Origin: a virus
Lineage: Duplodnaviria > Caudoviricetes
Reading direction: 5' to 3' (one strand)
IMG/VR virus record: IMGVR_UViG_3300016667_000302
Span: 1-37,867 of that record
DNA: 37,867 nt
In this document: positions 8,789 through 37,616 of the stretch, in pieces
Numbering within the stretch: position 1 is the first letter of the stretch
How the letters are laid out: each line of letters begins with the position of its first letter
The notes under the pieces: generated by a model
Told to the model about the DNA's origin: nothing
Databases searched by the model: none
Seen by the model: the letters and a program-made list of their open reading frames with translations, nothing else
Made by a program: the position numbers and the translations under genes

Positions 8789-9044
8789 AGTGCCAAACAC
8801 TTTGAGACTTCCCTTGACCAACCTTGGCAACGAACTTCTTCCTCTGCATCAGTCCTGCAGACAGCAGTCTTGATAGGATCTTATTGCACTGCCGCTCACC
8901 TACTCCCCACTCAGCTTGCAAATGCTTGCTTGTAAACCACCCCGGTGGTGGAGCTGCACCATTCTTGTCGAGAAGTTGCTTGAGTAGTTCATTCAGACCG
9001 GGAGTCTCCACTCCTTCAGCCCCCTTGGTTGTTCGTGTAGCCAT
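8769..9044 (-). CDS. Winged-HTH-like protein
   Basis: FTSKHLQAEWGVGERQCNKILSRLLSAGLM. Start refined to ATG 9044. Confidence 0.65.
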   Translation of the reverse strand: MATRTTKGAEGVETPGLNELLKQLLDKNGAAPPPGWFTSKHLQAEWGVGERQCNKILSRLLSAGLMQRKKFVAKVGQGKSQSVWHYAKTGI

Positions 9045-9721
9045 AGGACCGTCTCTGTACCAGAGTACTCGCCCCAGACAAAGCCAGAACTCCAAGAAAG
9101 TGTGGATCTTCTAGTGGATGCGTAGTCCATGCAAGGGATGTCGGCCAATGTTCCAACACAGAAGCCTGTCGGGTTGTCGATCCTTCTACCCTTGGCCACA
9201 GCAGCACGGTGGGTGTGCGCGTGGACGATATTTCCGTAAGCCTCGGCATGATCACGAGTTGCGCTCTCGGAGTACATTGTCCCATGTGTGGCCAAGTAGT
9301 TCCCAAACTTGAGTCCCTGCCAGACACCCGTATACGGCACGAGGTTGGCCTTTAAACGCTTCGCAGTGTCGTTAATAGCTCCAACCACCTGAGATGCTGC
9401 AAACGAGCGTACAGCATTGCTGCTGTTGAGTTCTCGAAACACCCTAGCCTCATGGTTTCCACACAGAATGTGGGTAGCCTTGATCTTCTCCAAGAAAGAC
9501 AATCCAGCCTCACAGTCAGGCTGAACCCGGTCAGTCATCTCGCTGTCCTTGGCACCGCTTCTGAAGGCGCCTAGGTCAATGAAGTCACCCAAGTGAACCC
9601 GGTCGTGAGGGGCGAAGTTCTTGATGAACTTCAGGATAGCCGCCTCATTCTCAGGTGGAAGTTGTGCGCCATGGGAACATCCAACAAACAGGATTCGACG
9701 CCACTTCCGTACGGGGTTCAT
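8993..9721 (-). CDS. Calcineurin-like metallophosphoesterase
   Basis: GCSH (DxH position), LGDFID, GNHE, THG, AHTHR. Confidence 0.88.
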   Translation of the reverse strand: MNPVRKWRRILFVGCSHGAQLPPENEAAILKFIKNFAPHDRVHLGDFIDLGAFRSGAKDSEMTDRVQPDCEAGLSFLEKIKATHILCGNHEARVFRELNSSNAVRSFAASQVVGAINDTAKRLKANLVPYTGVWQGLKFGNYLATHGTMYSESATRDHAEAYGNIVHAHTHRAAVAKGRRIDNPTGFCVGTLADIPCMDYASTRRSTLSWSSGFVWGEYSGTETVLWLHEQPRGLKEWRLPV

Positions 9722-29939: not shown

Positions 29940-31649
29940 TCAGTAGGAGCCAATGACCCCGGAATCTCGCCAGACCATGTTCTTGGCCTCAACGAACTCA
30001 GGATTCATCACTGTCAGATAGCCCAAACAGTCGATAGGGTCTTTGCTTGCTCCCTTTTGACCATCAGCCCCAGTCCACTCTCTTAACGAGTAAATAAGGT
30101 TCTGGCAACGCTCAGAGACAAACAACCTAGGTGAATTGTCCTCAGAGATCTCCTCATCCTTATTGTAGGAAAGAAGGTCATTAATGAGCAGGACACGCTC
30201 ATCAACGGTCACTGTGGCTGCCGGAGTGAATGACAAGCCAGACTCCTCAAGCAGATCTAGAAGCGTTACACCGCCTTCCTTGGAGGCTGTAGGGGTGCCT
30301 GCTGCTTTAGGGTCAATGAACCTCTCTTGGATCTCCTCGTCACCCTCCAGATCCATGATCATCTGGCAGTACTCCTGAATCCCTTTGCCAGCTCCAGCCC
30401 TCTGTGCTGGTCCCGGCTTCCCATCTGGACGGTCACAAGGTAACGCCCATTCACCATAGGTTTCGTCAGGAAACTCACGGTAGATGTATAGCCTGCCTTG
30501 CGTGTCTACCCGACACCACAGCATGAACCAGTTTCTGGCCCCAGCAGGGTCGATGACCATGTAGTTTGTCCCTTGAGCCGGTATCTTGTCGTGAGGAACA
30601 ACTGAATGCTCTCCAAAGTTGGGAAACTGGCTTCCAGCAGTGCTTTCTGCCCAGCCATAGGCACGGATCTTTACATCGTAACTGGATCGACCCCTAAGGG
30701 TCTTTTGCATCTGGTCCCAGCTAGAGTAAGGATTCAACTGGGTGTGAAACCAGATCACTCCAGCCCTGCCCTGCCTTGCCTCAGCCTTAAATGGCATCGT
30801 CCCTTCTGGACATCCAGCTACGTTCTTCCCAAGCAGCAATGGACTAGGCTTTGTCTCTGTGATCTTCACCCCGGCCAGATATTCCTTCACCACAAGGGTG
30901 TACCCAAGAATGGGAGTGAACGTCAGGATCAGCTTGCCCTGTTTTGTAATCAGTCGGTAACGAATCGTCTCCAGCCAGTCGTGTGGAACCAACTCATCAC
31001 ACCAGATTAGATCAGGCTCTCCACCCTCAATGACCTGCTTGTCCTGAGCATAGTTCAGGAACCAAATCTGGTTTGTGTTGTATACAGCAGTGTTATCGGA
31101 AAACCCGTTCTTCTGGGTGTAAGACAGGTTGGTGAACTTGCTCTTCCTAGCGTTACGAAGCTCTTTGGGAAGGTACTTGTAGACCACCTGCTGCTGGAAT
31201 GCGATGGAGCTTTGGTTGGTCGTGTGCAGGCACCAGATCTTCAGCCCACGCTTCTGGCATCTGTCCTTCATCCACTGTGGCCAAGGGAACTCACCCCTCT
31301 CAACACCAACAAGCATCTGTGCAGCCCTTCTAGCAGCCCATTCAGTCTTCCCTGCCCGGTTGCCTCCAAGCACCAGAACCTCGTCAGTTTCGTTCAGGAT
31401 GGCATCTGCTGTCTTCCAGTGCTTAGGCTCGATGGCGTAGCGGAAGGGGTCGTCTTGCTCCATCCAGACCCGTGTGTCACGAGTAAGAAGCCACTTACCT
31501 ACAGCAGCAACACCAAGCTTCTCTACACAGTCACGAAGGTAAGCCTCGTCAGGATTAGGGATGACAGGGTGACGGATGTACTTGTAATCAAGAATCCGTT
31601 CCAGCGTCCAATCACCCCCATCGGGATGATGATCAAGGGAGGCAAACAT
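29940..31649 (-). CDS. terL: Terminase large subunit
   Basis: Walker A GGNRAGKT, Walker B LIWCDE, coupling motif TFTP, nuclease VIDPAG and KDPIDCLGY. Confidence 0.95.
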   Translation of the reverse strand: MFASLDHHPDGGDWTLERILDYKYIRHPVIPNPDEAYLRDCVEKLGVAAVGKWLLTRDTRVWMEQDDPFRYAIEPKHWKTADAILNETDEVLVLGGNRAGKTEWAARRAAQMLVGVERGEFPWPQWMKDRCQKRGLKIWCLHTTNQSSIAFQQQVVYKYLPKELRNARKSKFTNLSYTQKNGFSDNTAVYNTNQIWFLNYAQDKQVIEGGEPDLIWCDELVPHDWLETIRYRLITKQGKLILTFTPILGYTLVVKEYLAGVKITETKPSPLLLGKNVAGCPEGTMPFKAEARQGRAGVIWFHTQLNPYSSWDQMQKTLRGRSSYDVKIRAYGWAESTAGSQFPNFGEHSVVPHDKIPAQGTNYMVIDPAGARNWFMLWCRVDTQGRLYIYREFPDETYGEWALPCDRPDGKPGPAQRAGAGKGIQEYCQMIMDLEGDEEIQERFIDPKAAGTPTASKEGGVTLLDLLEESGLSFTPAATVTVDERVLLINDLLSYNKDEEISEDNSPRLFVSERCQNLIYSLREWTGADGQKGASKDPIDCLGYLTVMNPEFVEAKNMVWRDSGVIGSY

Positions 31650-32330: not shown

Positions 32331-32376
32331 GACCCGCACCTACTACAAATTCCATGCCAGTGGCAAGGAGAAAATG

Positions 32377-32475
32377 CGCCCTAGGTGGGGATCGAACCCA
32401 CGGCATTCGCTTTCATCCCAGCTTTTCGGTCCTTAACCATGAGGGAGCGATGGTCTACCACTGAACTACTAGGGC
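32377..32475 (-). ncRNA. tRNA-like RNA with a 34-nt loop replacing the 7-nt anticodon loop
   Basis: Acceptor GCCCTAG/CTAGGGC, U8-A9, D arm GTTC-AGTGGTA-GACC (1 mismatch), stem TCGCT/AGCGA, 5-nt variable loop, T arm GTGGG-TTCGATC-CCCAC, discriminator G, no encoded CCA. Confidence 0.85.
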
Positions 32476-32482
32476 AATGTCT

Positions 32483-33463
32483 CTACTTCAACGAATCGTA
32501 CTTCAAGTTGATGACCTTGAACGACCCTTTGGAATGCTTGATCACAACACCCTCAAAGTGGTGGCCAGATGGTCCCTTGTCCATCTCTTCGTACTTCTTG
32601 ATGAGTTCAGGAGTCAGCTCAACATCCCTTTCAATCACCTCAACGGTGGAATCCTCATCAATAACCTTCAGAAAGTAAAATTCACTCCCCTTCCGCTGAA
32701 TCTCAAGAGTCTCCAGGCTCAGCACATCATAGACCGAGAACCTAAGGCGATCCACCTGTGAGTGTGGGTTGTGCTTCGATGATTGAATCCCTTTGCCATG
32801 AAGCTCCCCACGAAGCGCAAAGTCGAACCCAAGAAGGTCACGAAGCATCGGCAACTTCTCATCAAACCCATACCCATTGAAGCATTTGGTGTACTTATTA
32901 TCGCAGGTCGTTCTCAACTCCTGCGTCCTAGAACACAACCCAACAACAGGCTCCCCGTCCACCTTCTTGCAGTAAACCGTCATGGATGAGCCGTCCACTT
33001 TGAGTGTGACATCCACCTTCTCTCCCCAAGGCAAATCCTTGATGTTCTGGTAACGCTCCTCGTCAGTCTTGAACATCCCGAATGGAAGTCCACCAATGGC
33101 CTGAAGGTCGTTGCCAACAGGAGACTCGTACTTCCGCACACCAATCAAAGCAGAAATCTCCTGCCCAAGCTCCACAAGATCAACCCAACCTTCTCCAAGA
33201 ACAACATCAGGCTTCACCGCAATCCCAAACGACCACACTCCACGCAGACTGATAGCCTTTACCCTCTCACCCCTCTTGAATGGCTTCGCCCATTCATCAT
33301 CAGGCAAAACAGTGTCAGGATGGATCAAAACCACAGGATCGCCCACAGAGTAGGAATCCCTAGTGACAATGCATTGATAGCCAGAGATCTTGATGACATC
33401 CAGCCGGTCAGCATCAGGGTGACGTTCAACAGAATCAACCAGTTCAAGTGTTGCGAGTTTCAT
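32483..33463 (-). CDS. ATP-dependent RNA ligase, Rnl5/DRB0094 type
   Basis: N-terminal OB module HPDADRL, motif I KVDGSS, III RGELHG, IIIa FSVYDV, IV FEGVVI, V FKVIN. Start refined to ATG 33463. Confidence 0.92.
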   Translation of the reverse strand: MKLATLELVDSVERHPDADRLDVIKISGYQCIVTRDSYSVGDPVVLIHPDTVLPDDEWAKPFKRGERVKAISLRGVWSFGIAVKPDVVLGEGWVDLVELGQEISALIGVRKYESPVGNDLQAIGGLPFGMFKTDEERYQNIKDLPWGEKVDVTLKVDGSSMTVYCKKVDGEPVVGLCSRTQELRTTCDNKYTKCFNGYGFDEKLPMLRDLLGFDFALRGELHGKGIQSSKHNPHSQVDRLRFSVYDVLSLETLEIQRKGSEFYFLKVIDEDSTVEVIERDVELTPELIKKYEEMDKGPSGHHFEGVVIKHSKGSFKVINLKYDSLK

Positions 33464-33520
33464 GTGTGGCGAGACAACTGGCAGACCAATCACACCCAAT
33501 CAAGCAGAAAACAACGTACA

Positions 33521-33590
33521 GGGCATTCTAGGCGATTCTAGCGGGGTCTAGCGGAAAATGGGTAGAAATTGGTAGAAATGGGTAGAAATC
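33521..33590. repeat. Seven degenerate 10-nt tandem units
   Basis: gggcattcta ggcgattcta gcggggtcta gcggaaaatg ggtagaaatt ggtagaaatg ggtagaaatc. Confidence 0.7.
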
Positions 33591-34074
33591 AGAATGGTGG
33601 AAGCATCCAGTCCACAATCTTCTTGAACGACTTCTTGTCCCTCCTTGGAACAGCAAACTGGAGCAGTAGGCAAACCTCAGGCTCTTCTCCAATCGGCTCA
33701 AGCCAGTGCGTGCGCCTAGGATCAACGACAAAGCAACTGCCAAGCTCAACATTGCACTCGTCAACCAAGCCCCTCCTGCCAACCTGCCCAAAGGTGTGGA
33801 AGCCAGTCAGGCAGTAATTCAAGAAGAGGAAGCAATGCCAGTATTCACGCTCAACATGGGGCCATGCATACTTCGCCCAAACAACATTAACCCCCACATC
33901 AACCCCAATGTCCTCCAGTAAAGCAGCCGAAACAGCACCATCAAAGCAGATCCCATCAAATCTACCGGGCTGGACCTGCTTCTCAATCGAAGCAATGTCG
34001 CTCCAAGAAAGGAAGTCTTCAGCCTTTAGACCAAGCTGGGAGACACCAAGATAGACTGGAACGTAACGGCTCAT
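33589..34074 (-). CDS. Cupin / 2OG-Fe(II) oxygenase-like protein
   Basis: WPHVE (HxE), LFLNYCLTG, GSCFVVDPRRTHWL (distal His). Spacing fits a double-stranded beta-helix facial triad. Confidence 0.55.
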   Translation of the reverse strand: MSRYVPVYLGVSQLGLKAEDFLSWSDIASIEKQVQPGRFDGICFDGAVSAALLEDIGVDVGVNVVWAKYAWPHVEREYWHCFLFLNYCLTGFHTFGQVGRRGLVDECNVELGSCFVVDPRRTHWLEPIGEEPEVCLLLQFAVPRRDKKSFKKIVDWMLPPF

Positions 34075-34113: not shown

Positions 34114-34162
34114 AAAAAAAGAACCCCACTCACCGAGGTTTTATCCGCGACAAGTGAGGCCC
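34114..34162 (-). terminator. Intrinsic terminator, G.U-rich long stem
   Basis: GGGCCTCACTTGTCG...CGGTGAGTGGGGTTC: 15 bp including 6 G.U pairs valid only on the minus strand, followed by T7. Confidence 0.7.
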
Positions 34163-36763: not shown

Positions 36764-36915
36764 TTGTTTCCTCCTGCAATCATTTCATCCAACACTTCCC
36801 CAACCGTTCTGCCTTGTTTAAACGCCAGCGCTGCCAGCGTGCTTGCGGTTTTGATCAGCACCATGGGCATGATGCGCACCTTTTCTGGACCTTTTGGGCG
36901 TCCCCTCTTTTTCAT
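36760..36915 (-). CDS. Small DNA-binding protein (RGRP hook plus ribbon-helix-helix-like; 51 aa, not in ORF track)
   Basis: MKKRGRPKGPEKVRIMPMVLIKTASTLAALAFKQGRTVGEVLDEMIAGGNK, ATGA overlaps at both ends. Confidence 0.7.
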   Translation of the reverse strand: MKKRGRPKGPEKVRIMPMVLIKTASTLAALAFKQGRTVGEVLDEMIAGGNK

Positions 36916-37616
36916 TCTTCCCCCTCTCCACAGGCAATTGCGCTTGCCTTTTTCCTAGCGCTCCCATGCGCCAAAAATCCCACGATAACCGACCGATCCG
37001 CCCTAGCGCACAACTGGCATTTTGCACACGTCATGCCGGGGAGATCCTCGCGTTGTGCGGGGCAAACAATAATCTTCCGCCCTTTGGGGGTCTGGTTTGT
37101 AAGCGGTGCTCCCTCTGGTAGCAGACACACTACCGGACCCGCATCGGCATCCGCCAGAGCATCCGCATGGGCGGGATTGTTGCCTGATAGGTTAACCGTA
37201 AAACCCTCCCGATTCGCCCATCGGATGGATGCTCTGTTTGTGGTTTCCAGATTGCCAGCCCCCAACACTGGCTTGTGTGAGTATGTAAACCCACGCTTGC
37301 CTTTGTTGGCACGCACAAGGGTTTCCAGCCCATCCGTGTCAATCCGGTCACCCTCACCCGGCAGGTCACCAGCTTGGTTATGCCTCCAAACCTGATTTTC
37401 AGGGAGGGAGCGGATTTTGTCAGCAAAGGCAAGCAAAGCCTCGCCACGTTCTCCATTTGTCACCTTATCCCAATGCATCCCAAGGGGGCCACCTTCGGCA
37501 TAGCATCCCTTTTTCCTGAGAGGGCACGCAGGGGGGCAAGATTGCCTCCCCGTAGTGCTCACCGGGATGGGGCCGGTTTTGACGTTGTCGCTTTGGATTG
37601 TGAGATGGAAATTCAC
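36912..37616 (-). CDS. Cys-cluster phage protein (Gp88/DUF7227-like, possibly Fe-S)
   Basis: N.KTG, CPPACP..KGCYA, WRHNQAGD, FTYSH, VNLS, CPAQ...CAKCQLC, GFLAHG. Confidence 0.7.
   Translation of the reverse strand: MNFHLTIQSDNVKTGPIPVSTTGRQSCPPACPLRKKGCYAEGGPLGMHWDKVTNGERGEALLAFADKIRSLPENQVWRHNQAGDLPGEGDRIDTDGLETLVRANKGKRGFTYSHKPVLGAGNLETTNRASIRWANREGFTVNLSGNNPAHADALADADAGPVVCLLPEGAPLTNQTPKGRKIIVCPAQREDLPGMTCAKCQLCARADRSVIVGFLAHGSARKKASAIACGEGEE

Follow-up and report, generated by a model that had tools for sequence, protein, structure and literature searches.

In engineered tRNA scaffolds, a passenger RNA is placed in the anticodon stem, and the host processes and protects the recombinant RNA. 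Among natural RNAs, YrlA (RF02553) is described, in the available parts of two reports (PMC4201824; 10.1101/312249), as a tRNA mimic that does not decode, whose D and T elements are conserved and in which an extended interrupted helix replaces the anticodon loop. It is a precedent for the combination of an elbow module with a protein-binding arm. Phage tRNA genes that are oversized and carry conserved inserts are known from Lak megaphages, whose tRNA 'introns' are the nearest reported case (PMC6784885, in the part available). For RNA ligases of the Rnl5 type, the accessible sections of PMC5397189 name an OB domain as the signature, report that DraRnl (DR_B0094) seals 3'-OH/5'-phosphate nicks in duplexes and functions without an RNA such as the one described below, and call the physiology of these enzymes uncharted.

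The window analysed here is the whole 37,867-base virus record IMGVR_UViG_3300016667_000302. An earlier sequence-only reading of it had proposed a cassette of three co-oriented elements between the terminase genes, namely a cupin enzyme, an Rnl5-type ligase and an anticodon-less tRNA mimic. The three elements are real and their coordinates hold. The features of this region, in the order of transcription, are as follows:

35080-34607, minus strand: HTH protein, putative small terminase subunit TerS, assigned by position and sub-threshold Pfam HTH hits
34114..34162, minus strand: terminator-like hairpin (34140-34122) with a T run, located 5' of the cupin gene
34074-33589, minus strand: ORF of a predicted cupin-fold protein, 161 aa
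33463 (ATG) to 32483 (stop), minus strand: ORF of an Rnl5-type ligase, 326 aa, with an alternative TTG start at 33499
32377..32475, minus strand: tRNA-shaped non-coding RNA of subtype A, 99 nt
32412..32444, minus strand: arm in place of the anticodon loop of this RNA, 33 nt
32330-31794, minus strand: ORF of 178 aa without known family, between the RNA and TerL, conserved in relatives
29940..31649, minus strand: terminase large subunit TerL, phrog_2 match

The gap of 7 nt between the ligase stop codon and the start of the RNA was borne out, and a terminator-like hairpin does precede the cupin gene; it is also present, with changes, in the relatives L001 and L046. Of the two flanks, TerL stands by its PHROG match, while TerS is a putative assignment from position and weak HTH similarity; the 178-aa ORF had gone unmentioned. 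A promoter-like motif conserved in the same two relatives lies directly 3' of the RNA (32340-32365, minus strand). The promoter scan did not call it; it may drive the 178-aa ORF and TerL.

Fold and conservation of the RNA

The Rfam tRNA model matched the RNA with 51.3 bits (gathering threshold 29, E-value 2.7e-8) and placed a 33-nt insert in the anticodon loop. ARAGORN called no tRNA in the window and, when relaxed, reported the RNA as a distorted Leu tRNA. The RNA has a 7-bp acceptor stem, a D arm with a mismatch at position 11:24, a 5-bp anticodon stem, a 5-nt variable loop and a T arm; CCA is not encoded. In the arm, a 3' bulge and a short stem are followed by a conserved internal loop (UCAN / RAAANGCU), an apical GGU/RCC stem and a 5-nt loop. 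Since single-sequence folding gave a stability no better than that of shuffled sequences (z-score -0.22), the support for this fold is comparative. A hammerhead-like reading of the arm was rejected by eye, as the arm lacks one of the stems and has no conserved core.

Contigs from viruses and metagenomes were searched with sequence patterns, one of the scans covering 42 of 64 parts. A strict motif count gave 51 distinct family members, of which 37 belong to subtype B and 14 to subtype A, the subtype of the window RNA. The D-arm motif alone occurs at 90 loci, about 50 of which are members. The family is nearly all viral, is found in small and in very large phages, and has three or more tRNAs in the locus compared for 40 of the 51 members. 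The RNA occurs without tRNAs or an adjacent ligase in four records (L305, L188, L299 and L233). A first scan of 185,579 cellular genomes found no member, and a looser scan gave 36 matches including a single member on a 2.9-kb MAG contig; both used exact patterns, by which variants can be missed. A blastn search with both subtypes found no match in GenBank phages. Among the sequencing runs listed, no carrier of the RNA turned up, which says nothing about its expression.

The alignment shows which parts of the RNA are free to change. The 5' strand of the acceptor stem has 28 different sequences across the 51 members, and all pairs of the stem are formed in 49 of 50. All four bases occur at the discriminator position, CCA is encoded in 5 of 50 members, and none of the 50 carries G3:U70. 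With this many acceptor strands and discriminators, no conserved aminoacylation identity is apparent. Position 11:24 of the D stem is unpaired in all 25 aligned rows, and the elbow bases of the D-loop and T-loop are invariant in the aligned rows. The anticodon stem is fully paired in 30 of the 51 members by a simple count. The arm, 33-40 nt long across the family, consists of a stem with double changes, an internal loop conserved in sequence and an apical stem. In subtype B (15 rows), the arm stems are 93% paired with 17 double changes, compared to 31-63% when slid, and both arm stems of subtype A are 100% paired in 10 rows; these covariation counts come from related sequences, with the structure drawn from the same sequences. 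RNAalifold missed the arm on a mixed-subtype alignment because the two subtypes were misaligned.

Regarding decoding, the acceptor, D and T arms with the elbow nucleotides of a decoding tRNA are present. A 7-nt anticodon loop with U33 is absent, both directly and after splicing, and in 43 of the 51 members, including the window, no excision of the insert yields a loop with Y32, U33 and R37. The lack of a canonical loop by excision and of an acceptor identity supports the earlier claim that the RNA cannot decode, and by its sequence the RNA is a non-decoding tRNA mimic. The 51 members with covarying stems also bear out the view that it is selected rather than decayed. A one-off decayed pseudogene, with a normal tRNA in its place in relatives, had been named as one outcome that would speak against the proposed system; a family was found instead. 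Compared to the tRNAs of phage arrays (RF00005), the family shares the acceptor, D, variable and T elements and the array context, but has the 33-40-nt arm instead of a 7-nt loop, the constant 11:24 mismatch and no acceptor identity. It resembles the Lak tRNA inserts (PMC6784885, as described in the part available) in being an oversized phage tRNA gene, and differs in that no consistent excision gives a tRNA.

No description of this RNA family was found in the literature searched. The RNA is not described in the examined text of PMC8421152, PMC10690425 and PMC7609411, and six motif strings were absent from the part of the PMC10690425 supplements that was covered, so that an earlier listing in the remaining files is possible. 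Judged by sequence comparison, the RNA is an uncatalogued phage family and a new form of tRNA mimic. It is a natural, conserved counterpart of the engineered tRNA scaffold, with a fixed passenger.

Several related elements were observed beside the family. Four loci (L132 290-396, L179 1625-1730, L193 787-890 and L138 290-393) may form a third subtype with a longer arm and a related hairpin; they score 46-52 bits with model R2 and, except for L138, have the same D arm. Shorter relatives that share the mismatched D arm (L282 4994-5077 and L287 4070-4153, with copies in L283, L286, L320 and L341) have a 7-bp arm with the Y RNA motif GNCGAA in its loop; TROVE was not found in their records. Three tRNA-like genes share the D-arm mismatch, of which one (L325 4994-5073) has a 7-bp anticodon stem and lies 3.6 kb from an Rnl5 gene, one (L278 2489-2563) has C33 and one (L300 4950-5026) has a CUA anticodon. 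The arm of subtype A (window 32439-32444) starts with CUCA, and the next base is U, C or A and never G in the 14 members; read as anticodons, these starts match AUG, GUG and UUG, probably by chance.

The variable slot, the cupin and the ligase

Close relatives of the window phage argue against a fixed cassette. In L233, a 5-kb contig with a TerL 93% identical to that of the window, the slot has no ligase and holds a cupin gene, a tRNA-Tyr-like gene (at about 930-1020, missed by ARAGORN), two further ORFs and the same RNA, whose acceptor stem differs. In three runs from three studies (X4, X5 and X14), contigs join the 5' end of the RNA to the far side of the ligase (joint 32475-33511), with 30 letters on the flanking side. 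Other DNA lies upstream of the RNA in X2, X11 and X12, and a contig of X11 skips the cupin. In X5 and X16 other DNA follows the ligase, and the RNA may lie further on. Contigs bridging ligase and RNA also exist (X14, X20 and L001). Outside the window phage's own clade, no cupin homologue was found in the RNA loci compared. The RNA sits at the distal end of the slot, whatever lies upstream. The proposed cassette is thus not supported, as relatives keep the RNA and exchange the ligase or the cupin; from these gene contents, the latter two are read as independent, optional cargo of a variable slot that precedes the terminase gene.

The 161-aa protein had no match in Pfam, NCBIfam or PHROG. Its structure model is a double-stranded beta-helix with a pLDDT of 90, obtained with distant kin from a profile search; a model from near kin only reached a pLDDT of 54 and was discarded. 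Structural matches were cupins and 2OG oxygenases with TM-scores of about 0.4-0.55. This fold agrees with the predicted cupin identity. The motif in the window is H73-x-E75...H123, distant kin have HxD...H, and H73 is kept in just 8 of 20 near kin, which makes an activity of this clade doubtful. The protein is therefore read, from its model, as a partly degenerate oxygenase-fold protein. The suggestion that it modifies RNA found no backing, since nothing connects it to RNA modification.

The ligase was confirmed as Rnl5-type, with an N-terminal OB domain (PF21189, 40.8 bits, cut-off 27), an adenylyltransferase domain (PF09414, 50 bits, over the cut-off), a match to phrog_968 (E-value 4e-44) and a full-length match of its family profile to NgrRnl (PDB 5cot, E-value 8.5e-44). 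Residues K155, D157, G158, R179, E220, E304 and K316 are invariant in 40 aligned ligase rows. The score against TIGR02306 (105.4 bits) is below the cut-off of 151.15, which weakens the case for a 'DRB0094 equivalog' and does not affect the family fold. The PheT-like motif noticed earlier corresponds to a weak PheT match (E-value 0.018), which is due to the OB domain typical of Rnl5 and is thus the normal signature of the family. Based on its sequence, the best reading of the protein is an ordinary, active Rnl5. With DraRnl and NgrRnl it shares the OB and adenylyltransferase domains and intact motifs; it differs from them as a phage clade below the TIGR02306 cut-off. To our knowledge, no RNA substrate of Rnl5 is known in vivo. 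The accessible sections on DraRnl and NgrRnl (PMC5397189) do not describe an RNA partner.

Rnl5 ligases and the RNA across phage genomes

The sequence-only reading had expected Rnl5 homologues to be linked to such RNAs. This did not hold: the RNA is absent from all 33 other Rnl5 records, 7 of which reach 90% completeness or more, and from 5 cultured Rnl5 phages. In the opposite direction a linkage is possible: Rnl5-type genes are present in 17 of 50 RNA-bearing records, which are mostly fragments. The 17 include G086, where the contig end truncates the gene. PF09414 is present in 19 of these 50 (5/5, 1/8 and 13/37), most of which are less than 25% complete, compared to 1 of 20 unmatched control records. 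Grouped by eye, the RNA-bearing records form seven lineages, five with Rnl5, one with another PF09414 ligase and one with none. For records of at least 70 kb, the OB domain is present in 5 of 12 RNA-bearing records, which are less complete than the controls, and in 4 of 13 controls (Fisher p 0.69). No Rnl5 was found in G091 (87% complete) and G099 (66%), and RtcB was absent from five ligase-less records. All three large tRNA-array records without the RNA have a PF09414 ligase, and ATP-grasp ligases are reported to be common beside tRNAs in jumbo phages (PMC7824862, in the part available).

Away from the window, ligase and RNA are 3 to 31 kb apart; where an Rnl5-type gene and the RNA could both be placed, they share the strand and are separated by 3-13 kb. 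In a quick tree that left out L029 and L032, the window ligase groups with ligases of RNA-less records, apart from those of the phages with the closest RNA, and the ligases fall into three separate clades. The ligase is rare among 50,697 GenBank phage records, with 331 matches compared to 3,253 for PhoH. The window and G002, which carries the same RNA subtype, share only the ligase and a weak helicase hit. When the RNA was compared with 186 anticodon loops, its longest complementary stretch did not exceed that of shuffled sequences, which leaves a role as splint without sequence support. On these genome comparisons, a link between ligase and RNA is possible but not obligate.

Possible roles of the RNA

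We favor the reading that the RNA is a stable, non-decoding tRNA scaffold with a protein-docking arm and probably a host factor as partner, and give it a probability of about 0.5. Host tRNA-processing enzymes would release the RNA from the transcript, it would lack a charging identity and not be charged with one amino acid, and its arm and elbow would bind a protein. The free but strictly paired acceptor sequence, the fixed elbow and the conserved arm fit these steps. The partner would be a host factor that acts in translation or RNA surveillance rather than a phage protein, since no window protein is common to all five RNA-bearing records compared; this comparison depends on records that are 21-100% complete and on the sensitivity of BLAST. 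The RNA may thereby play a role in a conflict over translation.

In the main rival reading, Rnl5 could use the RNA as a cofactor, as a tether or as its preferred substrate, with the OB domain binding the elbow or arm and the complex repairing cut RNAs. The presence of Rnl5 in five of seven lineages, the ligase directly upstream of the RNA in the window, its rarity among phages and its status as the sole non-replication protein common to the window and G002 speak for this. Relatives that keep the RNA at its site without the ligase, Rnl5 phages that lack the RNA, the similar frequency of the OB domain in controls, the three ligase clades, the absence of excess complementarity to anticodon loops and the activity of DraRnl on its own (PMC5397189, in the accessible sections) speak against it, so that we regard this pairing as possible but rather doubtful. 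The RNA could also be a partner of host Ro60/Rsr, as a Y RNA whose modules stand in tRNA order. Its module order is that of YrlA opened at the acceptor, by eye the 3' arm strand of subtype A looks like the beginning of the YrlA consensus in Rfam, and the anticodon stem of YrlA is likewise kinked (10.1101/312249, in the part available). Yet YrlA is permuted, with T before D and a closed acceptor, whereas the elements of the family follow the usual tRNA order, the acceptor end being open and the arm closed. The YrlA motif GNCGAAN0-1G occurs in 0 of 51 arms, with GNCGAA alone in one. The YrlA model reached at best 26.6 of 69 bits, in a match spanning two genes, and had no match for the 3' half of the RNA. 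YrlA is linked to Ro60, while the family usually lies in tRNA arrays; no Ro60/TROVE gene was found in two sets of RNA-bearing records (0/5 and 0/50), which exclude the window's own record and for which positive controls matched. In order, motif and Ro60 linkage the family falls outside YrlA, and binding to Ro60 is unlikely, yet by analogy it may work alike.

A mere processing or stabilizing signal, in which the tRNA shape marks transcript cuts for RNase P and 3' trimming enzymes, would agree with the free acceptor sequence and with the location at the distal end of the slot irrespective of upstream content. It would make a sequence-conserved arm needless, though, and most members already lie among real tRNAs that supply such signals, which renders this explanation improbable as well. 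An intron-containing tRNA gene, spliced to a decoding tRNA perhaps by the ligase, would be comparable to the 'enigmatic' introns of Lak phages. The five pairs of the window's anticodon stem are compatible with this, as are the tRNA-like gene of L278, which has ordinary length, shares the D arm and carries a loop identical to the start of the subtype A insert, and the reported phage tRNA introns (PMC6784885, in the part available). However, most members including the window have no excision that gives a suitable loop, there is no shared acceptor identity and relaxed ARAGORN yields a distorted Leu, so that splicing is very improbable. The missing ARAGORN call and the unremarkable single-sequence fold could suggest a one-off decayed pseudogene, but this reading is refuted by the existence of a family whose stems covary and which spans small as well as very large phages.

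Returning to the docking scaffold, a more tentative extension by analogy is a new ribonucleoprotein principle, in which the arm on the tRNA body would recruit Rnl5 or a host factor to damaged tRNA, as a Y RNA tethers Ro60 to an effector. The family could then be an un-permuted, ancestor-like Y RNA, with the 38-kb phage as its minimal RNA-plus-ligase version. Because the RNA is missed by ARAGORN and filed as a plain tRNA by Rfam, tRNA arrays hold separately selected non-decoding members, which a short signature of the D arm with the 11:24 mismatch and the arm core can find. Identifying what binds the arm would reveal a factor, from host or phage, that takes part in the conflict over translation. 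Were this Rnl5, it would be the first RNA partner for a ligase family of uncharted physiology (PMC5397189, in the accessible sections).

Other genes and elements were noted along the way. The Pfam scan of about 19 ORFs of the window detected a calcineurin-like phosphoesterase (8993-9721, minus strand; PF00149, over the cut-off), for which a role in RNA-end healing could be conceived from its family. A DUF7227 protein is encoded at 36912-37616 on the minus strand, and the RNA-bearing record G003 has a homologue 2 kb away from its Rnl5 gene. A further tRNA-like element, often in two to three copies, occurs in many prophage records (L047-L169) and in L239, L243, L250, L252 and L253; it combines constant acceptor, D and T arms with a highly variable middle and is also present in Lactiplantibacillus genomes.
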